IMG/VR virus record: IMGVR_UViG_2877285697_000001
Location: 1 to 16,422 of that record
Source: a virus
Taxonomy: Duplodnaviria; Heunggongvirae; Uroviricota; Caudoviricetes
Direction: 5' to 3' (one strand)
Length of the DNA stretch: 16,422 bases
The notes beneath the pieces are model-generated. The model had not been told where the DNA came from. It did no database searches and was given only the letters and a program-made list of their open reading frames with translations. This document shows positions 4,409 through 16,422 of the stretch, one piece after another. Every line of letters starts with the position of its first letter. Within the stretch, counting starts at the first letter, position 1. The position numbers and the translations under genes are program-made.

Positions 4409-4472
4409 TGAGGTAGCCTGAGTTTAACGGACACTCCTTCCTGAAATAGAATGGCATCAGAAGGAGCTAATA

Positions 4473-4775
4473 ATGAGCAGAAAAACCCAACGTTACTCTA
4501 AAGAGTTCAAAGCCGAAGCTGTCAGAACGGTTCTTGAAAATCAACTTTCGATCAGTGAAGGCGCTTCCCGATTATCCCTTCCTGAAGGCACTTTAGGACA
4601 ATGGGTTACCGCCGCCAGAAAAGGGCTCGGTACTCCTGGTTCCCACACGGTGGCTGAACTGGAATCTGAAATTCTGCAACTGCGTAAGGCGTTAAATGAA
4701 GCTCGCCTTGAGCGAGATATATTAAAAAAAGCAACAGCGTATTTTGCACAGGAGTCGCTGAAAAATACGCGTTAA
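4473..4775 (+). CDS. IS600 OrfA
   Basis: 100-aa ORF; differs from the copy at 1-303 by one residue (H58 versus R58). Confidence 0.9.
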   Translation: MSRKTQRYSKEFKAEAVRTVLENQLSISEGASRLSLPEGTLGQWVTAARKGLGTPGSHTVAELESEILQLRKALNEARLERDILKKATAYFAQESLKNTR

Positions 4776-4810
4776 TCGAACAATGGCGACAACAATTTCC
4801 CATTGAAGCG

Positions 4811-5629
4811 ATGTGTCAGGTATTTGGTGTATCCAGGAGCGGTTATTACAACTGGGTACAGCATGAACCCTCAGACAGAAAACAAAGTGATGAGCGGCTA
4901 AAACTGGAGATTAAGGTGGCACATATCCGCACTCGCGAAACATATGGAACCCGGCGGCTCCAGACGGAGCTGGCAGAGAATGGCATCATCGTTGGTCGTG
5001 ACCGGCTGGCACGTCTTCGTAAGGAGCTAAGGCTACGCTGTAAGCAGAAACGCAAGTTCAGAGCGACTACGAACCCGAACCACAATCTGCCAGTTGCGCC
5101 AAATCTGCTGAACCAGACGTTCGCTCCTACAGCACCAAATCAGGTCTGGGTGGCGGACCTGACGTATGTTGCCACACAGGAGGGATGGTTGTACCTCGCT
5201 GGCATCAAAGATGTTTATACGTGCGAAATTGTCGGCTACGCCATGGGAGAGCGCATGACAAAAGAGCTGACAGGTAAAGCCCTGTTTATGGCGCTCAGGA
5301 GCCAGCGCCCACCTGCCGGGCTAATCCACCACTCTGATCGAGGTTCACAGTACTGCGCATACGATTACCGGGTCATACAGGAGCAGTCTGGTCTGAAAAC
5401 ATCAATGTCGCGTAAAGGTAACTGTTACGACAACGCTCCGATGGAAAGCTTCTGGGGAACGCTGAAAAATGAGAGCCTGAGCCACTATCGTTTTAATAAC
5501 CGGGATGAAGCCATCTCAGTAATACGGGAATACATTGAGATTTTCTACAATCGTCAGCGTCGTCACTCTCGTCTGGGGAATATCTCCCCGGCAGCCTTCA
5601 GGGAAAAATATCATCAGATGGCTGCTTAA
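4811..5629 (+). CDS. IS600 OrfB, DDE transposase catalytic subunit (made as OrfAB by -1 frameshift)
   Basis: 272-aa ORF with rve-type DDE motifs (...HSDRGSQY...NAPMESFWGTLK...), frame -1 relative to orfA. Confidence 0.9.
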   Translation: MCQVFGVSRSGYYNWVQHEPSDRKQSDERLKLEIKVAHIRTRETYGTRRLQTELAENGIIVGRDRLARLRKELRLRCKQKRKFRATTNPNHNLPVAPNLLNQTFAPTAPNQVWVADLTYVATQEGWLYLAGIKDVYTCEIVGYAMGERMTKELTGKALFMALRSQRPPAGLIHHSDRGSQYCAYDYRVIQEQSGLKTSMSRKGNCYDNAPMESFWGTLKNESLSHYRFNNRDEAISVIREYIEIFYNRQRRHSRLGNISPAAFREKYHQMAA

Positions 5630-5766: not shown

Positions 5767-6915
<1,149 letters not shown>

Positions 6916-8832: not shown

Positions 8833-8887
8833 GGTAATGCTGCCAACTTACTGATTTAGTGTATGATGGTGATTTTAAGGTGCTTGC

Positions 8888-9163
8888 GTGGCTTCCATTT
8901 CCATCAGATGTCCTTCCTGCTCCGCTACTGAAGGCGTGGTGCGTAACGGCAAAAGCACTGCCGGACATCAGCGCTATCTCTGCTCTCATTGCCGTAAAAC
9001 ATGGCAACTACAGTTCACTTACACCGCCTCTCAGCCCGGTACGCACCAGAAAATCATTGATATGGCCATGAATGGCGTCGGATGTCGCGCCAGTGCACGC
9101 ATTATGGGCGTTGGCCTCAACACGGTTTTACGTCACTTAAAAAACTCAGGCCGCAGTCGGTAA
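8888..9163 (+). CDS. insA: IS1 InsA (91 aa)
   Basis: [66 protein letters not shown]... Confidence 0.95.
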
Positions 9164-9585
9164 CCTCGCGCATACAACCGGGCAGTGATGTGATTGTCTG
9201 CGCTGAAATGGACGAACAGTGGGGCTACGTCGGTGCTAAATCACGTCAGCGCTGGCTGTTTTACGCGTATGACAGGATACGGAGGACGGTTGTGGCGCAC
9301 GTCTTCGGTGAACGCACTCTGGCCACACTGGAGCGTCTTCTGAGCCTGCTGTCGGCCTTTGAGGTCGTGGTATGGATGACGGATGGCTGGCCGCTGTATG
9401 AATCACGCCTGAAGGGAAAGCTGCACGTTATCAGCAAGCGTTACACTCAGCGCATTGAGCGACATAATCTGAATCTGAGACAACATCTGGCAAGGCTGGG
9501 ACGGAAGTCACTGTCGTTCTCAAAATCGGTGGAGCTGCATGACAAGGTCATCGGGCATTATCTGAACATAAAACACTATCAGTAA
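9082..9585 (+). CDS. insB: IS1 InsB reading frame (expressed as InsAB' by frameshift)
   Basis: 167-aa ORF ...[65 protein letters not shown]. Confidence 0.9.
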
Positions 9586-9694
9586 GTTGGAGTCATTACC
9601 GAGAACGATTTATCACCGCAGTCGGGCTAAATCCGCTAGTCTGTTGGTATGTAAGTGGTTGCATAGTCATTGCCTTATCAGTTAACGCCGCAGT

Positions 9695-9922
9695 TTAGGC
9701 GGCAGAATTACTCGCGTTAAACAATGGTGCGAGGTCGGGACGAATATCTGCTGGTTTAATCTTTCCACCAGTGGCTGAGACAATTTTCATTACATAGCGG
9801 GCATCAATTCCGCCACCGTGTAGCCAACGCCAAACTGTGGGTTGGGCTACACCGCATAGATCTGCCAGTCGTTTTTGACTACCTGTAATACTGATTGCGA
9901 GTTGAATGGTTTGATTTGTCAT
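9695..9922 (-). CDS. Cro-like HTH regulator (75 aa)
   Basis: MTNQTIQLAISITGSQKRLADLCGVAQPTVWRWLHGG... HTH; ATG (complement of 9920-9922) with AGGA 9 nt upstream; divergent from the repressor gene. Confidence 0.7.
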   Translation of the reverse strand: MTNQTIQLAISITGSQKRLADLCGVAQPTVWRWLHGGGIDARYVMKIVSATGGKIKPADIRPDLAPLFNASNSAA

Positions 9923-10032
9923 TATCAATTCCTGTTGGTATTGCAATGAATGAATAATAGCAATGCGTATTAATCCAAGCAATAGCAAAACGTGTTTTGA
10001 CCATCAATACGCAAGCGTATAAATTAAAACTT
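9923..10032. promoter_or_regulatory. Divergent immunity control region (pR-like and pRM-like promoters with operator dyads)
   Basis: Minus-strand promoter: -35 TTGCTT (complement of 9977-9982), 17-bp spacer, -10 TATTAT (complement of 9954-9959). Dyads AATAGCAATGCGTATT (9956-9971) and ATACGCAAGCGTAT (10007-10020). TATAAA (10017-10022) lies 10 nt before the cI ATG. Confidence 0.45.
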
Positions 10033-10725
10033 ATGAAAAAAGAAACTCTTGCTGATCGCTTAAACCTAGCGATGGAACAATCTGGAATGTCTCAAGGCGC
10101 TCTTGCAAAGGCGTCTGGCGTAGCTCAACCCACAATCTGGAGACTGACAAGCGGCAACGCGCGCGGCTCAACAAAAATTGTTGAAATAGCTAATGCATTG
10201 GGGGTTCGAACAGAATGGCTCTCATCAGGCATAGGCCCGATGAGAAATGACGGTCAACAATCAGGGAAGCCTGCTGTCAGCCATTCAAAATACTTCAAGA
10301 TTGACGTTCTTGATATAGAAGTCAGTGCCGGGCCGGGTGTAATCAACCGTGAGTTTGTAGAAGTTCTACGCTCGGTTGAGTACTCGTTTGACGATGCTCG
10401 TCACATGTTCGATGGCAGGAAGGCGGAAAATATCCGCATCATTAACGTGCGTGGTGACAGCATGTCAGGAACGATCGAACCAGGTGATCTTCTGTTCGTT
10501 GATATCACGGTTAAATCTTTCGACGGTGATGGTATCTATGCGTTTCTGTATGACGACACAGCCCATGTAAAGCGCCTGCAAATGATGAAGGATAAGCTGC
10601 TGGTTATCTCTGATAACAAGAGCTACTCACCGTGGGACCCGATCGAGAAAGACGAGATGAACCGGGTATTCATCTTCGGGAAAGTCATCGGAAGCATGCC
10701 GCAGACGTATAGGAAGCATGGGTAG
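10033..10725 (+). CDS. CI-like prophage repressor, N-terminal HTH plus C-terminal S24 (LexA-like) autopeptidase (230 aa)
   Basis: MKKETLADRLNLAMEQSGMSQGALAKASGVAQPTIWRL... HTH; C-terminal ...RGDSMSGTIEPGDLLFVD...HVKRLQ... Ser/Lys dyad motifs; ATG 10033 chosen inside track ORF 9997-10725. Confidence 0.85.
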   Translation: MKKETLADRLNLAMEQSGMSQGALAKASGVAQPTIWRLTSGNARGSTKIVEIANALGVRTEWLSSGIGPMRNDGQQSGKPAVSHSKYFKIDVLDIEVSAGPGVINREFVEVLRSVEYSFDDARHMFDGRKAENIRIINVRGDSMSGTIEPGDLLFVDITVKSFDGDGIYAFLYDDTAHVKRLQMMKDKLLVISDNKSYSPWDPIEKDEMNRVFIFGKVIGSMPQTYRKHG

Positions 10726-10836
10726 TGAAGGACGTGTCAACTCTATTTTGTAAGCTATCCAGACTCACAGTTGCAGATCGACGAGTAACTTACATACAGC
10801 ACAAAAAAACAATATGCGCGTGCTTTTAGACTAGAC

Positions 10837-10851
10837 TTACCATAATGGTAA
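10837..10851. promoter_or_regulatory. Perfect 15-bp palindrome TTACCATAATGGTAA overlapping the first ATG of the toxin gene
   Basis: Exact dyad symmetry (7-1-7) read directly from the sequence. Confidence 0.35.
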
Positions 10852-11255
10852 CAAGTATGATTCTTAGCAGATATGTGGGAACTCCTCCCCGTGATGGCGA
10901 GGACAGAAAGATTCAAGGTGGTCCGCTTTATTTAGATATCATTGATTTGATTGATGAATGTGACACACTGCCTTGGACCAGACGGTGTATCAGGGATGTT
11001 CAATCGCTTTCTTTAGATGCAGATGACATCAAATCTATGGTGATAAAAGCAGTCACTAAAGGGAGATTTCTAGGTTCAGAATGGTGTCAAGGCAGTAAAC
11101 CAGGTGTATGGGCAGCTTGTGATGCTTATAGCTTTGAGCACTCATTTTGGTGCCAAGCTATGCATAAAGAACTTAATAACGAGTTCTACATTAAATTTTT
11201 TGTAAACATTACTGGCAATGTAGTGCTTACAGTATCTCTTCATCTCTCTAATTGA
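10845..11255 (+). CDS. MqsR-like toxin (putative mRNA interferase); start may instead be ATG 10857
   Basis: Blocks shared with recalled E. coli MqsR: ...TRR...LSLD, DDIKSM (MqsR SDFYKSM), EFYIKFFVNITGNVVLTVSL (MqsR QVYLKITVIHDVLIVSF); toxin gene precedes antitoxin as in mqsRA. Confidence 0.6.
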   Translation: MVTSMILSRYVGTPPRDGEDRKIQGGPLYLDIIDLIDECDTLPWTRRCIRDVQSLSLDADDIKSMVIKAVTKGRFLGSEWCQGSKPGVWAACDAYSFEHSFWCQAMHKELNNEFYIKFFVNITGNVVLTVSLHLSN

Positions 11256-11279
11256 GTGATGATAAATGAGGATTTTTAT

Positions 11280-11867
11280 ATGAGAAACAACAACATATGT
11301 CCAGTTTGTGGTGTAGGTCATCTCACCGTGGAGATGGAGTATGATGATGTTACTTATAAAGGGGAAACAAAAAATCTCCCAATAAGGTTTTCTGTGTGTG
11401 ATCAATGTGGTTCGGAAACTGCCACACCAGTCGATTTACGAGAAAACAAACGAATTTTCAATGAATACAAAAAGTCTATCGATGGACTTTTAACAGGAAA
11501 AGAATTAAAAAAAATTAGAACTGAAGTATGGATGATAACCCAGCAAAAGGCATCCTCTATATTTGGTGGGGGGCCTAAGGCATTTTCCAAGTATGAATCT
11601 GATGATGTCATTCAATCAGAAGCAATGGATAAACTGATGCGTTTAGCAGCAGAAGTTCCTGATGCATTCAAAAGGTTACGGGAATTATCTGGCGAAATCA
11701 AAGTTGAAAGAACAGTCTCATCATCTAAATCTTTACCTATATGGAAATCTGAAGCAAAAGCACAATTTGAAAACGATGATCAGGGATTTGACAGCAAATC
11801 ACCAGCCCAAACAAAAATGAATCAAACATCAATAAAGATAAAAACTGTTGCTAAGCGGGTAGCATGA
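11280..11867 (+). CDS. MqsA-like antitoxin (zinc-ribbon plus XRE-type HTH) with about 60-aa C-terminal extension (195 aa)
   Basis: MRNNNICPVCGVGHL...CDQCGSE zinc ribbon; LTGKELKKIRTEVWMITQQKASSIFGGGPKAFSKYE matches the recalled MqsA HTH block (IFGGGVNAFSRYE); GAGGA 7 nt upstream of ATG 11280; canonical MqsA is about 131 aa. Confidence 0.75.
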   Translation: MRNNNICPVCGVGHLTVEMEYDDVTYKGETKNLPIRFSVCDQCGSETATPVDLRENKRIFNEYKKSIDGLLTGKELKKIRTEVWMITQQKASSIFGGGPKAFSKYESDDVIQSEAMDKLMRLAAEVPDAFKRLRELSGEIKVERTVSSSKSLPIWKSEAKAQFENDDQGFDSKSPAQTKMNQTSIKIKTVAKRVA

Positions 11868-12367
11868 TGAATGAACTTCTTAGATCAGCAATAGACGCAT
11901 TATCAATAATGCATATCAATATCAGAGAATCTAACTTTGCTTTTTCTGAAGGGTATAATAGCTTTAACTTCAACAGCATAAATAAGCAAACACAATCATT
12001 TCGTAAGATAAAAAAAATCGAAGCTATTGAATTAGTAAGTGACGATGACTCATTAAAAAATGAGCTATATTACTCTTTTCACTACTCAGTTGGGCTTAGA
12101 TTTATTGCAAAATCCGAAGAAACATCTAAAGACGAAAATGATGTTGATACAATTTTTTCTATAGAAGCAATTTTTGAGGCGATATATCGCTCAAAGAGAG
12201 AATTATCTAAAGAAGAGTTAGAAGAATTTGCTAAGCAAAATGTAGGTTTTAATGTATGGCCTTTTTGGCGAGAGTATGTTCAAAACAGCACATCCAGAAT
12301 GGGAATTACTACAATAGCTATACCATTCTTTAAATTCAATAAATCAGACATACCTTCATTAGATTAA
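11864..12367 (+). CDS. SecB-like chaperone (167 aa), translationally coupled to the antitoxin (ATGA overlap)
   Basis: N-terminal LSIMHINIRESNFAFS versus SecB FQIQRIYTKDISFEAP; C-terminal TIFSIEAIF and NVWPFWREYVQNSTSRMG...IPFFKF versus SecB GGIFSIAGIE and NILFPYARECITSMVSRG...APVNF (E. coli SecB from recollection). Confidence 0.55.
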   Translation: MMNELLRSAIDALSIMHINIRESNFAFSEGYNSFNFNSINKQTQSFRKIKKIEAIELVSDDDSLKNELYYSFHYSVGLRFIAKSEETSKDENDVDTIFSIEAIFEAIYRSKRELSKEELEEFAKQNVGFNVWPFWREYVQNSTSRMGITTIAIPFFKFNKSDIPSLD

Positions 12368-12381
12368 ATTCAAATATAACT

Positions 12382-12408
12382 CCCGGCTACCGTGCCGGGT
12401 TTTCTTTT
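12382..12408 (+). terminator. Rho-independent terminator ending the repressor/TAC transcription unit
   Basis: CCCGGC-taccgt-GCCGGG stem-loop followed by TTTTCTTTT, 15 nt after the chaperone stop. Confidence 0.65.
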
Positions 12409-12549
12409 GTCCCCTCCCCTCATCACACACCGTTCAAAAAACCACCACGACCTCACTTCAGTTATCGCTATGCGATGCAAGTCACAAAATTAATTCTTTT
12501 TGCTATCAAACATTTAATATCAAAACACATCAACTAATAGCAGTGAGTA

Positions 12550-12578
12550 TTGGTATCACCAATAGCAATAGCTATTAT
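12550..12578 (+). promoter_or_regulatory. pL-like promoter with embedded operator dyads, reading toward gam-bet-exo
   Basis: -35 TTGGTA (12550-12555), 17-bp spacer, -10 TATTAT (12573-12578); dyads TTGGT-atc-ACCAA (12550-12562) and AATAGC-aata-GCTATT (12561-12576); the latter resembles the oR dyad at 9956-9971 and overlaps the -10 in the same way. Confidence 0.45.
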
Positions 12579-12771
12579 CACCATATCGCAACAACACAAC
12601 GATACGGCAACCACCTGATTCACCGTTGCGATGACCGCTTAGATCCGCAGCTTGAATTTCAGCAGGCTTCGGGGAGTGCGAGGGATGAAACGGACGCGTG
12701 AACGTCGGTGTGACCAGCTGAAATCAACTCAACATTTCATACCTTAGTCGCTTCAACGAGGCGGCTTAGTT

Positions 12772-13062
12772 ATGACAACCGGCGGCCATCCACCGCCTGA
12801 ATACGCGCAGAAGTCTTTATATGTTCAGCAGCCCAGCTTACGGGCAGGAGTTTTTATGGTTCATCAACATTACGGAACGCAGACCGTTAATCGCGGTGCG
12901 GTCATGCCAGGAATGCTGGTCAAACGCAAAGATGGTACCTGGACTGCATCAGCTAATTTACGCGGACGACTTTATCTGCATCGCGGCATTGAGCGCACTT
13001 ATACCCGTGACTTGCTCGTGGAAGTTTTTCTCGACGGACGCGGCAACGGTCTGAATCACTAA
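12772..13062 (+). CDS. Hypothetical protein in the kil position (start uncertain: 12772, 12856 or 12904)
   Basis: ORF ends at TAA 13060-13062 inside the TCACTAA motif that I recall as the lambda kil stop overlapping the long gam leader; protein unlike lambda Kil. Confidence 0.4.
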   Translation: MTTGGHPPPEYAQKSLYVQQPSLRAGVFMVHQHYGTQTVNRGAVMPGMLVKRKDGTWTASANLRGRLYLHRGIERTYTRDLLVEVFLDGRGNGLNH

Positions 13063-13137
13063 TCCCCTTTCCTGTTTTCCGAATCAGCCTGGCATTCCGC
13101 GGGCGATTTTTTCACAGCCATTTTCAGGAGTTCAGCC

Positions 13138-13434
13138 ATGAACGCTTATTACATTCAGGATCGTCTTGAGGCTCAGAGCTGGGCGCGTCACTACCAGCAG
13201 ATCGCCCGTGAAGAGAAAGAGGCAGAACTGGCAGACGACATGGAAAAAGGCCTGCCCCAGCACCTGTTTGAATCGCTATGCATCGATCATTTGCAACGCC
13301 ACGGGGCCAGCAAAAAAGCCATTACCCGTGCGTTTGATGACGATGTTGAGTTTCAGGAGCGCATGGCAGAACACATCCGGTACATGGTTGAAACCATTGC
13401 TCACCATCAGGTTGATATTGATTCAGAGGTATAA
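13138..13434 (+). CDS. gam: Gam (short form GamS, 98 aa), RecBCD inhibitor
   Basis: [56 protein letters not shown]..., near-identical to recalled lambda Gam; AGGAG 7 nt upstream. Confidence 0.9.
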
Positions 13435-13439
13435 AACGG

Positions 13440-14225
13440 ATGAGTACAGCACTCGCAACGCTGGCTGGGAAGCTGGCTGAACGTGTCGGCATGGATTCTG
13501 TCGACCCACAGGAACTGATCACCACTCTTCGCCAGACGGCATTTAAAGGCGATGCCAGCGATGCGCAGTTCATCGCATTGTTGATCGTCGCCAACCAGTA
13601 CGGCCTTAATCCGTGGACGAAAGAAATTTACGCCTTCCCTGACAAGCAGAACGGCATCGTTCCGGTGGTGGGCGTTGATGGCTGGTCCCGTATCATCAAT
13701 GAAAACCAGCAGTTTGATGGCATGGACTTTGAGCAGGACAATGAATCCTGCACATGCCGGATTTACCGCAAGGACCGTAATCATCCGATCTGCGTTACCG
13801 AGTGGATGGATGAATGCCGCCGCGAACCATTCAAAACCCGCGAAGGCAGAGAAATCACGGGGCCGTGGCAGTCGCATCCCAAACGGATGTTACGTCATAA
13901 AGCCATGATTCAGTGTGCCCGTCTGGCCTTCGGATTTGCTGGTATCTATGACAAGGATGAAGCCGAGCGCATTGTCGAAAATACCGCATACACTGCAGAA
14001 CGTCAGCCGGAACGCGACATCACTCCGGTTAACGATGAAACCATGCAGGAGATTAACACTCTGCTGATTGCCCTGGATAAAAAATGGGATGACGACTTAT
14101 TGCCGCTCTGTTCCCAGATATTTCGCCGCGACATTCGCGCATCGTCAGAACTGACACAGGTCGAAGCAGTGAAAGCTCTCGGATTCCTGAAACAGAAAGC
14201 CACTGAGCAGAAGGTGGCAGCATGA
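13440..14225 (+). CDS. bet: Bet (Red-beta) single-strand annealing protein (261 aa)
   Basis: [72 protein letters not shown]..., near-identical to recalled lambda Bet. Confidence 0.95.
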
Positions 14226-14902
14226 CACCGGACATTATCCTGCAGCGTACCGGGATCGATGTGAGAGCTGTCGAACAGGGGGATGATGCGTGGCACAAAT
14301 TACGGCTCGGCGTCATCACCGCTTCAGAAGTTCACAACGTGATAGCAAAACCCCGCTCCGGAAAGAAGTGGCCTGACATGAAAATGTCCTACTTCCACAC
14401 CCTGCTTGCCGAGGTTTGCACCGGTGTGGCTCCGGAAGTTAACGCTAAAGCACTGGCCTGGGGAAAACAGTACGAGAACGACGCCAGAACCCTGTTTGAG
14501 TTCACTTCCGGCGTGAATGTTATTGAATCCCCGATCATCTATCGCGACGAAAGTATGCGCACCGCCTGCTCTCCCGATGGTTTATGCAGTGATGGCAACG
14601 GCCTTGAACTGAAATGCCCGTTTACCTCCCGGGATTTCATGAAGTTCCGGCTCGGTGGTTTCGAGGCCATAAAATCGGCTTACATGGCCCAGGTGCAGTA
14701 CAGCATGTGGGTGGCACGAAAAGATGCCTGGTACTTTGCCAACTATGACCCGCGGATGAAGCGTGAAGGCCTGCATTATGTCGTGATTGAGCAGGATGAA
14801 AAGTACATGGCGAGTTTTGACGAGATGGTGCCGGAGTTCATCGAAAAAATGGACGAGGCACTGGCTGAAATTGGTTTTGTATTTGGGGAGCAATGGCGAT
14901 GA
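14222..14902 (+). CDS. exo: Exo (Red-alpha) 5'-3' exonuclease (226 aa)
   Basis: [68 protein letters not shown]...; ATGA overlap with bet as in lambda. Confidence 0.95.
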
Positions 14903-15081
14903 AGCATCCTCACGATAATATCCGGGTAGGCGCGATCACTTTCGTCTACTCCGTTACAAAGCGAGGCTGGGTATTTCCCGGCCTTTCTGTTACCCGAAAT
15001 CCCCTGAAAGCACAGCGGCTGGCTGAGGAGATAAATAATAAACGGGGAGCTGTATGCACAAAGCATCTCCTGTTGAGTTAA
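14893..15081 (+). CDS. Lambda orf60a-like small protein (62 aa)
   Basis: [33 protein letters not shown]..., position immediately after exo as in lambda. Confidence 0.65.
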
Positions 15082-15245
15082 GAACGAGCATTGAGATGGC
15101 ACATAGCCTCGCTCAAATTGGAGTCAGGTTTGTGCCAATACCAGTAGAAACAGACGAAGAATTTCATACGTTAGCCGCATCCCTTTCACAAAAGCTGGAA
15201 ATGATGGTGGCGAAAGCAGAAGCAGATGAGAGAGACCAGGTATGA
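15054..15245 (+). CDS. Lambda orf63-like small protein (63 aa)
   Basis: Track [66 protein letters not shown]; position and size as lambda orf63. Confidence 0.55.
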   Translation: MHKASPVELRTSIEMAHSLAQIGVRFVPIPVETDEEFHTLAASLSQKLEMMVAKAEADERDQV

Positions 15246-15321
15246 CAACCACTGAATGCATTTTTCTGGTAGCGGGCTTCATATTCTGTGTGCTTATGCT
15301 TGCCGACATGGGACTTGTTCA

Positions 15322-15537
15322 ATGACACCTCAGCAAGAAAACGCCCTTCGCAGTATTGCCCGTCAGGCTAATTCTGAAATCAAAAAAGCCAGACAGCAGT
15401 TTCCGGATAAAAACGTCGATGACATTTGCCGTAGCGTACTGAAGAAGCACCGCGAAACGGTAACGCTGATGGGATTCACACCGACTCATTTAAGCCTGGC
15501 GATCGGCATGTTAAACGGCGTCTTTAAGGAACGGTGA
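15322..15537 (+). CDS. Lambda orf61-like small protein
   Basis: MTPQQENALRSIARQANSEIKKARQQFPDKNVDDICRSVLKKHRETVTLMGFTPTHLSLAIGMLNGVFKER from ATG 15322 inside track ORF 15256-15537. Confidence 0.55.
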   Translation: MTPQQENALRSIARQANSEIKKARQQFPDKNVDDICRSVLKKHRETVTLMGFTPTHLSLAIGMLNGVFKER

Positions 15538-15559
15538 GCATGAAAAACAAAATCATCAT

Positions 15560-15583
15560 GGAGCTACAGGCTCCTTTTTTATT
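15560..15583 (+). terminator. Candidate intrinsic terminator after the orf61-like gene
   Basis: GGAGC-tacag-GCTCC followed by TTTTTTATT. Confidence 0.45.
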
Positions 15584-15635
15584 ATTCGCATTCACCCTCA
15601 AGCGTATTAACCAACAATTCAGGGATTAATGAAAG

Positions 15636-15669
15636 ATGGCAGACATCATTGATTCAGCATCAGAAATTG
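15636..15669 (+). pseudogene. 5' stub (MADIIDSASEI...) of a gene interrupted by IS1; by position possibly the lambda ea22 equivalent
   Basis: ATG at 15636, 11 codons, then the frame enters the IS1 left end at 15670. Confidence 0.3.
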
Positions 15670-15724
15670 GGTAATGCTGCCAACTTACTGATTTAGTGTA
15701 TGATGGTGATTTTAAGGTGCTTGC

Positions 15725-16000
15725 GTGGCTTCCATTTCCATCAGATGTCCTTCCTGCTCCGCTACTGAAGGCGTGGTGCGTAACGGCAAAAGCACTGCCG
15801 GACATCAGCGCTATCTCTGCTCTCATTGCCGTAAAACATGGCAACTACAGTTCACTTACACCGCCTCTCAGCCCGGTACGCACCAGAAAATCATTGATAT
15901 GGCCATGAATGGCGTCGGATGTCGCGCCAGTGCACGCATTATGGGCGTTGGCCTCAACACGGTTTTACGTCACTTAAAAAACTCAGGCCGCAGTCGGTAA
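15725..16000 (+). CDS. insA: IS1 InsA
   Basis: Identical 91-aa translation to 8888-9163. Confidence 0.95.
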
Positions 16001-16422
16001 CCTCGCGCATACAACCGGGCAGTGATGTGATTGTCTGCGCTGAAATGGACGAACAGTGGGGCTACGTCGGTGCTAAATCACGTCAGCGCTGGCTGTTTTA
16101 CGCGTATGACAGGATACGGAGGACGGTTGTGGCGCACGTCTTCGGTGAACGCACTCTGGCCACACTGGAGCGTCTTCTGAGCCTGCTGTCGGCCTTTGAG
16201 GTCGTGGTATGGATGACGGATGGCTGGCCGCTGTATGAATCACGCCTGAAGGGAAAGCTGCACGTTATCAGCAAGCGTTACACTCAGCGCATTGAGCGAC
16301 ATAATCTGAATCTGAGACAACATCTGGCAAGGCTGGGACGGAAGTCACTGTCGTTCTCAAAATCGGTGGAGCTGCATGACAAGGTCATCGGGCATTATCT
16401 GAACATAAAACACTATCAGTAA
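15919..16422 (+). CDS. insB: IS1 InsB reading frame
   Basis: Identical 167-aa translation to 9082-9585; stop TAA at the window end. Confidence 0.9.

Follow-up and report, generated by a model that had tools for sequence, protein, structure and literature searches.

A cassette very probably corresponding to the MqsRAC anti-phage system in the slot downstream of cI in a lambda-like prophage

Identity of the cassette with a published system

The three-gene cassette found downstream of the repressor gene in the window (the whole stretch of 16,422 nucleotides that was analysed) is very probably the MqsRAC anti-phage toxin-antitoxin-chaperone (TAC) system, essentially as the allele of E. coli C496_10. 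As an AT-rich cargo, it fills the variable slot that a lambda-like prophage has between cI and the terminator on the PL side. MqsRAC is already known, having been both published and experimentally characterised, and the cassette is therefore not to be chased as a discovery.

The assignment was derived from a direct comparison with the published material. All six primers used for the cloning of C496_10 mqsRAC matched exactly at the gene ends, including both ends of mqsC, and the C496_10 synthetic fragment was identical to the window sequence at 377 of 379 nt (99.5%), one of the two differences being intergenic and the other synonymous. The visible published fragment comprises the first 379 nt only, and the identity of the remaining cassette rests on the primers. 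The exact primer matches and the nearly identical fragment thus led us to equate the cassette with the published system, and the earlier note was right in stating that an MqsRAC arrangement had been reported in E. coli. In gene order and gene ends the cassette agrees with that described for C496_10 (Vassallo et al. 2022, Nat Microbiol; Fernandez-Garcia et al. 2023, Microbiol Spectr). The window copy sits after cI in a lambdoid prophage disrupted by insertion sequences.

The earlier note had proposed that toxicity, chaperone dependence and an effect on phages be examined, and the published C496_10 experiments supply these answers. MqsR was toxic when expressed alone (Vassallo et al. 2022; PMC9519451), its toxicity was relieved only in the presence of both MqsA and MqsC, the complete system blocked phage T2 and an excess of MqsC abolished the defence (PMC9519451). 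The inhibition of T2 by MqsRAC was independently confirmed (PMC10783111).

Organization of the cassette

The three genes are co-directional and tightly linked on the + strand and consist of an mqsR-like toxin gene (10845-11255, 136 aa), mqsA (11256/11280-11867, 203/195 aa) and mqsC (11864-12367, 167 aa), located between a cI-type repressor gene and an intrinsic terminator (12382-12409). The toxin start is placed further downstream, at the ATG at 10857, by RefSeq and by Vassallo et al., which returns a protein of 132 aa. A GAGGA Shine-Dalgarno sequence occurs 7 nt upstream of the mqsA ATG at 11280, and the mqsA stop codon overlaps the mqsC start codon in an ATGA located at 11864-11867. The sequence features listed in the earlier note were all found in place, namely the blocks LSLD, DDIKSM and EFYIKF..VVLTVSL in the translation of gene 1, CPVCG..CDQCG and IFGGGPKAFSKYE in gene 2, and IMHINIRESNFA and WPFWREYVQNSTSRMG..IPFFKF in gene 3.

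The toxin-antitoxin-chaperone order is kept in four distant loci and folds or families are supported for all three proteins, thus indicating that the arrangement is not due to chance. PADLOC returned no match to its MqsR or MqsA models and a weak CmdC (PD-T4-9_C) match for gene 3 only, and an Rfam search of the entire window returned no RNA families. Two opposite-strand ORFs inside the cassette (11142-11405 and 11402-11611) had no family support and were taken as spurious.

The variable slot of the prophage

The left border of the slot is formed by the cI-type repressor gene (10033..10725, + strand; Pfam HTH_3 and Peptidase_S24; RefSeq WP_001295669.1), with a divergent cro-like HTH gene on the - strand (9695..9922; Pfam YdaS_toxin/HTH and P22_Cro-like matches; RefSeq annotation in locus L001). 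Homology with related sequences breaks at 10721-10726 and again at 12382, thus delimiting a variable cargo segment or moron (10726..12381, + strand) that carries mqsRAC and has a GC content of 35.6% versus 46-52% in the flanks, in agreement with the AT-richness pointed out in the earlier note. The first conserved backbone element to the right is the intrinsic terminator (12382..12409, + strand), with a 6-bp all-GC stem, CCCGGC/GCCGGG, spanning 12382-12399 and followed by a T-tract (TTTTCTTTTG); from 12382 on, homology with many lambdoid phages was observed. The same cI allele occurs in 2209 out of 5426 E. coli genomes, and in all but 18 of these the homology ends at the cI stop codon.

The cargo is 99.8-99.9% identical to that of strain PI7 and of phage PhiR70_1, while PhiR68_2 and NT1F10 share the same cI and hold a different cargo. 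The variable cargo is framed by the cI stop codon on one side and the conserved terminator on the other, and the break points together with the alternative cargos next to the same cI bear out the proposal that the cassette occupies the position of rexAB. NT1F10, whose name is sibling to that of NT1F31, was considered as a TAC carrier and rejected, as its slot holds a hypothetical gene paired with an ASCH gene. Diverged relatives were found in the same slot, with toxin identity down to 35%. MqsRAC, like HigBAC, is therefore found after cI across deep divergence, which supports TACs as regular occupants of this exclusion locus. Lambda RexAB is located likewise, following cI and preceding the terminator on the PL side, and also serves in general terms for the prophage-encoded exclusion of other phages, but its proteins and mechanism are entirely unrelated to those of MqsRAC.

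The host prophage is lambda-like, riddled with insertion sequences and defective, while the cassette, located in a block with a direct IS1 copy on either side, is intact. Classical toxin-antitoxin modules stabilise mobile DNA, and the persistence of an intact cassette, of type II by architecture, within an IS1-bracketed block of a decayed prophage might be read in the same way: the cassette would mainly be an addiction module maintaining the prophage or the IS1-bracketed segment by post-segregational killing, and defence would be a side effect seen only on plasmids in K-12. We regard this explanation as very unlikely, given the strong T2 defence recorded in direct experiments from a low-copy promoterless vector, the location in an exclusion locus known to be variable (occupied by rexAB in lambda, by HigBAC in NT1F31 and by other cargos elsewhere) and the presence of a chaperone layer with demonstrated phage sensing in two other TACs. 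The addiction and phage-defence roles are not mutually exclusive.

Antitoxin and chaperone

The gene 2 product was assigned to the MqsA family, with scores above the curated cut-offs of both NCBIfam TIGR03830 (113.2 bits, cut-off 61.8) and Pfam MqsA_antitoxin PF15731 (63.9 bits, cut-off 30). The antitoxin core (residues 1-133; 11280..11678, + strand) comprises a zinc ribbon (CPVC...CDQC) and an HTH domain and aligns to residues 4-132 of the solved MqsA structure 3gn5; the zinc-ribbon cysteines Cys7/10/40/43 are invariant.

The remaining portion of the protein (11679..11867, + strand; residues 134-195 plus the stop codon) runs past the end of E. coli MqsA, which has no such extension. The protein is 195 aa long from the ATG and E. 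coli MqsA 131 aa, and the extension of 62-64 aa agrees with the figure of about 60 aa previously noted. The tail contains W155, F163 and F170 and ends in Val-Ala. Among five homologues the Trp is kept, as is the second of the aromatic positions, and the end is VA or AA in four out of five. The aromatic residues of the chaperone-addiction (ChAD) tail of HigA and the VA and LAA degrons of ClpXP provide parallels to these features, and by analogy we consider the extension a putative ChAD tail.

The third gene (mqsC; 11864..12367, + strand) encodes a SecB-like TAC chaperone. The resemblance to SecB was only partly recovered by profile searches, as the sequence match to Pfam SecB was below threshold (16.5 bits, cut-off 26) and the CmdC match in PADLOC was weak, whereas the predicted fold did match SecB structures. 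Foldseek analysis of the AF2 model (pLDDT 81) gave as top match 5mtw, Mtb Rv1957 with a ChAD peptide (E 1e-7, TM 0.72-0.76), followed by the SecB structures 1ozb/1fx3/1qyn (E 1e-5 to 1e-7). The model thus points to a SecB fold and, with the family assignment of gene 2, upholds the interpretation of the cassette as a TAC system.

The toxin as a divergent MqsR-fold protein

The description of gene 1 as MqsR-like stood as regards the fold and failed as regards the key catalytic residues and the Pfam family score. The fold match spans 89 of the 91 MqsR residues, in keeping with the MqsR / RelE-superfamily fold. The window toxin gave no match to Pfam MqsR (PF15723), weak matches were obtained for only 6 out of 40 homologues, and an hhalign comparison of the toxin family with the canonical MqsR profile returned a weak E value of 0.007. 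RefSeq and UniProt-derived sources list the toxin as "hypothetical" and, since it is invisible to Pfam, annotation pipelines show only an orphan MqsA and a "SecB".

The catalytic pair of MqsR, Lys56 and Tyr81, is not preserved in the toxin family. In an alignment at 19-23% identity, and hence of some uncertainty, the position of the essential Lys56 was occupied by G, D, N, Q or R and by Lys in none of the 40 members, while the Tyr81 position was occupied by Tyr in 32 members and by Phe in the other 8. Because of these replacements the GC-specific cleavage of MqsR, which reviews currently assign to MqsRAC, cannot be assumed. An invariant His occurs where MqsR has Lys96; K113, H129, D89 and Y91 are invariant and E75 is near-invariant, all lying on the same sheet. 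From their conservation, these residues seem to make up an active site that has been remodelled and is still live, of the Glu/His type often found in RNases resembling RelE.

The lack of a Pfam match for the window protein, the weak profile-profile match, the missing Lys56 and the occasional replacement of Tyr81 would also suit a diverged or inactive MqsR-fold protein that is no MqsR-type RNase and acts by a different route, for instance by binding the ribosome without cleavage. This possibility appears distinctly unlikely to us, since the published protein is toxic on its own, the fold match is almost complete and the conserved residues cluster on one sheet.

A tentative proposal, to which we give somewhat less than even weight, is that the MqsRAC toxins, about 135-145 aa long and comprising 457 clusters at 50% identity, form a separate compact clade of the MqsR fold, in which Lys56/Tyr81 would be replaced by a site built around His129, Lys113, Asp89, Tyr91 and the near-invariant Glu75. 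RNA target and ribosome dependence would then be unlike those of GC-specific cleavage, and the clade would have its own MqsA operator, TTACCA-N3-TGGTAA, holding the toxin start codon. Cheap and concrete experiments on MqsRAC are opened by the putative operator at the toxin start and by the missing catalytic lysine of MqsR.

A conserved palindrome at the toxin start codon

A perfect palindrome overlaps the mqsR start codon (10837..10851; TTACCAT-A-ATGGTAA, which can also be written TTACCA-TAA-TGGTAA) and is probably, judging from its sequence and position, the MqsA operator. In each of the five independent loci examined the palindrome recurred at an identical position, with its centre 1 nt upstream of the toxin start codon; one of these loci, from Rhodocyclaceae, is GC-rich and uses GTG as start. 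The geometry of the palindrome matches that of the published MqsA operators AACCT-N3-AGGTT and TTAACCT-GGA-AGGTTAA. The residues with which E. coli MqsA reads DNA, Asn97/Arg101, are Lys/Lys at the aligned positions here (FGGGPKAFSKYE vs FGGGVNAFSRYE), consistent with the altered half-site TACCA in place of the AACCT of K-12.

A promoter scan upstream of mqsR revealed no convincing sigma-70 promoter, the sole weak match (10832-10861) overlapping the start codon. Together with the shared orientation of cassette and cI, the lack of a predicted terminator between cI and mqsR and a position identical to that of rexAB, this result might suggest that the cassette has no promoter of its own and depends for its expression entirely on the cI (PRM) immunity transcript, of which it would form the distal part, as do rexAB in lambda. 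The published construct, however, defends from a low-copy vector described as promoterless with only 88 nt upstream of mqsR, starting at window position 10757, 32 nt downstream of the cI stop codon. Moreover, loci in which no cI lies upstream (L004 and L006) also keep the palindrome at the toxin start, which implies local autoregulated transcription. Expression from PRM alone is thus rather improbable, and the conserved operator-like palindrome and the function from a promoterless plasmid argue for an autoregulated promoter of the cassette as well.

Proposed mechanism and comparison with known systems

In the resting lysogen, the zinc-ribbon domain of MqsA would bind and block MqsR, a putative RNase of the RelE superfamily, and MqsA would probably also act as repressor of the operon at the palindrome that overlaps the start codon of mqsR. 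The 62-residue aromatic tail would make MqsA unstable unless wrapped by an MqsC tetramer. Upon infection, an abundant newly made phage protein might compete for MqsC; this trigger is proposed by analogy only, and a structural protein may be expected from the pairs lambda gpV/HigC and T4 Gp23/CmdC, HigBAC and CmdTAC being the mechanistic precedents for chaperone-based phage sensing. The uncovered tail, ending in Val-Ala, would then lead to aggregation of MqsA or to its degradation by ClpXP, and free MqsR would cleave mRNA, stopping translation and phage production. The degron role of Val-Ala is uncertain here, as HigA of HigBAC needs no ClpXP.

The E. coli K-12 MqsR/MqsA pair (ygiUT) shares with the cassette the toxin-first order, the toxin fold, the palindrome geometry of the operator and an antitoxin whose zinc ribbon and HTH align end to end. 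However, it lacks both chaperone and ChAD tail, and the toxin described here is about 38 aa longer than K-12 MqsR and has neither Lys56 nor Lys96. In the MqsRA-SecB TAC of Vibrio cholerae RC385 (Bordes et al. 2016), the MqsA-family antitoxin shares the block FGGGPxAFSKY...DDVxQSxAMDKL...LAAEVP, ends in a ChAD (136-176) and is served by a SecB-like chaperone of its own, on which it was shown to depend. The RC385 tail is shorter (about 40 aa vs about 62 aa here), and organism and context are different.

HigBAC of E. coli NT1F31 (Mets et al. 2024) is a TAC that occupies the corresponding slot after cI of a lambdoid prophage. It likewise combines a chaperone of the SecB type with an antitoxin whose ChAD tail is long and aromatic, but its proteins are unrelated or only distantly related to those of the window. 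HigA has 218 aa with the ChAD at 122-218 (W128, F158, F188, Y214), in contrast to the zinc-ribbon MqsA described here, and the HigC pocket residues Y39/N41/R49/D71 correspond, by residue number, to I39/K41/I49/S71 in MqsC. HigBAC is triggered by lambda gpV and defends against siphoviruses and not against T2. The possibility that the cassette is the NT1F31 HigBAC was rejected on the basis of the length of HigA, its different aromatic pattern and the non-matching pocket residues of HigC. As a minor observation, the statement in an mBio 2025 review that 'higBAC of E. coli C496' senses a lambda tail protein appears to conflate two strains.

Gene organization and correspondence with MqsRAC

Three consecutive plus-strand open reading frames, as claimed in the earlier note, were confirmed downstream of a cI-type repressor gene (HTH_3 and Peptidase_S24 domains, 10033-10725) that is divergent from a cro-like gene: the toxin gene mqsR (10845-11255), the antitoxin gene mqsA (frame 11256-11867) and the chaperone gene mqsC (11864-12367). 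The start of mqsA was placed at ATG 11280, which has GAGGA 7 nt upstream and is identical to the RefSeq start, and the overlap described between the second stop and the third start is an ATGA at 11864-11867. Every peptide block quoted previously was found in the translations. An all-GC hairpin with a 6-bp stem (12382-12399), followed by TTTTCTTTTG, begins fourteen bases past the mqsC stop, where a strong intrinsic terminator had been proposed, and the AT-richness of the cassette was borne out by a GC content of 35.6% for the segment 10726-12381 (30.6% for mqsC) against 47% for cI and 52% for gam-bet-exo.

The primers and the synthetic "MsqRAC gene fragment" given in Table S8 of Vassallo et al. 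(PMC9519451) were searched against the window. All six published primers matched exactly at the predicted gene ends, including mqsR-F (10857-10877), mqsR-R (11232-11255), mqsRA-R (11850-11867), mqsC-F (11864-11886) and mqsC-R (12345-12367), while the 379 nt of the fragment visible in the published text were the same as 10757-11135 save for two differences, one intergenic (10818) and one synonymous at a third codon position (10979). The toxin-antitoxin-chaperone (TAC) reading of the earlier note was correct, and the cassette is the already known and characterized MqsRAC system. MqsRAC was reported to protect MG1655 from T2 and not from T4, to work from a vector of low copy number, described as promoterless, to require MqsA and MqsC jointly for rescue of MqsR toxicity and to lose protection with extra MqsC (Vassallo et al.; PMC9519451); T2 inhibition was independently confirmed with the same plasmid (Fernandez-Garcia et al. 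2023, PMC10783111). Most of the experiments proposed in the earlier note have thus already been carried out on this sequence.

Antitoxin and chaperone assignments

The second protein is an MqsA, as anticipated, scoring 113 bits against NCBIfam TIGR03830 (cut-off 61.8) and 63.9 bits against Pfam MqsA_antitoxin (cut-off 30). With 195 aa from ATG 11280 it exceeds the 131 aa of E. coli MqsA, and since the alignment spans only residues 4-132 of the solved E. coli protein, residues 134-195 constitute an additional tail. The SecB-like nature of the third protein was supported by structure, its sequence matches all being sub-threshold, with E-values of 0.008 for Pfam SecB, 7e-4 for the CmdC model of PADLOC and 0.005-0.01 for Rv1957, the SecB-like chaperone of Mycobacterium tuberculosis (Mtb). 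Its AlphaFold model (pLDDT 81) matched 5mtw, Rv1957 in complex with a chaperone-addiction (ChAD) peptide (E 1e-7, TM 0.72-0.76), followed by H. influenzae and E. coli SecB.

The slot downstream of cI

The cassette is located where lambda carries rexAB, as had been stated. Strain PI7 and the inducible phage PhiR70_1 both show the order O/P, cII-like, cro, cI, the three genes, kil, gam, bet, exo, xis and int. The borders of the cargo are sharp. Of 5426 complete E. coli genomes, 2209 have the cI allele of the window, and in all but 18 of these homology stops at 10721-10726, at the cI stop codon; on the right, homology to many lambdoid phages restarts where the terminator stem begins, at 12382. 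Unrelated gene pairs fill the slot in PhiR68_2 and in strain NT1F10, whose cI protein is identical to that of the window, and HigBAC of strain NT1F31, a different TAC, was placed there by Mets et al. Assignment of the present cassette to HigBAC was ruled out, as antitoxin length, ChAD pattern and chaperone pocket residues all differ. One of the 18 genomes with the cassette, CUPS04 (NZ_CP180694.1), carries an IS1 insertion within or beside it, because its match to 10700-12500 (1922117-1924693) is split in two and the roughly 776 additional bases in between bear the annotation IS1 family transposase.

Two diverged MqsRAC-type loci, L003 and L005 (toxin identity 53% and 35%), are likewise found in lambdoid prophages, immediately downstream of an S24 repressor of the cI type, a placement that is new as far as the literature found goes; the relatives from Erwinia (L004) and Rhodocyclaceae (L006) are located elsewhere. 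The latter (JAUXWU010000129.1, 122-3303) is directly downstream of genes for a protein of 859 aa with a ResIII helicase domain and for an unknown protein of 201 aa, and may lie in a defence island instead of a prophage.

A palindrome conserved at the toxin start

A perfect palindrome, TTACCAT-A-ATGGTAA, occupies 10837-10851 and encloses the ATG at 10845. Since a palindrome with 7-bp arms also turned up in 5.6% of shuffled versions of this single spacer, the evidence lies in conservation and not in the single occurrence: the palindrome is equidistant from the toxin start in five of five independent loci, and in the Rhodocyclaceae locus, which uses GTG, it reads TACCA-TCG-TGGTA within otherwise unrelated upstream DNA. 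The geometry matches that of the published MqsA operators, AACCT-N3-AGGTT in E. coli and TTAACCT-GGA-AGGTTAA in P. putida, the latter overlapping the mqsR RBS, whereas the half-site TACCA differs. The DNA-reading Asn97 and Arg101 of E. coli MqsA both align to Lys in the window protein, consistent with a changed half-site. The conserved operator-like sequence argues for local autoregulation of the cassette, besides any read-through from PRM, through a putative operator. RefSeq and the published constructs start the toxin at 10857; 10845, within the palindrome, is the sole start codon common to all homologous loci, L005 having no second ATG.

Proposed mechanism

Sensing has been worked out for two TAC systems. 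In CmdTAC, the newly made T4 capsid protein Gp23 strips the chaperone CmdC from the complex, and ClpXP degrades the antitoxin, whose C-terminus is LAA, so that the toxin is freed (PMC11618068); in HigBAC, gpV, a tail protein of lambda, and the aromatic ChAD motifs compete for HigC. Loss of MqsRAC defence with extra MqsC fits this titration logic. The MqsA tail carries a Trp (W155) together with aromatics at positions 163 and 170. Homologues conserve this Trp and a second aromatic position, and Val-Ala or Ala-Ala forms the C-terminus of four of the five tails. For Mtb HigA1 and CmdA, comparable ends have been described as ClpXP degrons (PMC11618068 for CmdA), HigA of HigBAC being an exception. 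By analogy, a phage protein would compete for MqsC and ClpXP would then remove MqsA.

State of the prophage copy

The window is a prophage that has decayed, and none of the complete E. coli genomes in the collection contains it in full. The 6.07-kb block from cro to past exo (9601-15669) aligns colinearly with PI7 and PhiR70_1 (98.6-99% identity), and this cro-cI-mqsRAC-kil-gam-bet-exo block is bracketed exactly by two identical direct IS1 copies (8833-9600 and 15670-16422). The left copy abuts a ybcK fragment with no 9-bp target duplication, so the remainder of the cII-like gene, O, P and ren are absent. This layout is similar to that of a composite transposon, by which the block of immunity and defence genes could be mobilized. 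Also observed was a perfect inverted repeat of 367 nt (1-367 and 4409-4775, continuing to about 5629), each arm of which is the beginning of an IS3-family element (HTH_Tnp_1 transposase then rve integrase, 4473-5629). These arms flank a Q antiterminator-porin-lysozyme segment inverted relative to PI7, and a further rve transposase lies on the minus strand (5918-6586). Between the terminator/PL side and kil (12410-12771), an N-like antiterminator gene was neither annotated nor detectable and Rfam returned no RNA family; PI7, PhiR70_1 and many related phages (4A7, Perceval, Lambda_4C10) likewise showed no N-like gene, whereas the L003 and L005 prophages have an N_peptide gene at this region.

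Toxin family and annotation

No Pfam, NCBIfam or PADLOC model detected the toxin. Its family is a compact one: a set of 1.84 billion representatives contained 457 clusters of it at 50% identity, almost all with lengths of 135-145 aa. As the protein is demonstrably toxic, its altered canonical MqsR site is probably remodelled instead of dead, and the GC(U) specificity extended to MqsRAC by reviews is therefore an assumption. Together with the palindrome, this site offers a cheap entry point to trigger, cleavage chemistry and regulation. Public annotation of the cassette is incomplete: RefSeq, GenBank, UniRef and the phage record name the validated toxin a hypothetical or uncharacterised protein, and its partners MqsA family antitoxin and SecB. 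The PF_HigB section of PMC11980606 (mBio 2025) credits the lambda-tail-sensing higBAC to "E. coli C496", probably a mix-up, as the primary preprint takes HigBAC from NT1F31 and MqsRAC from C496_10.
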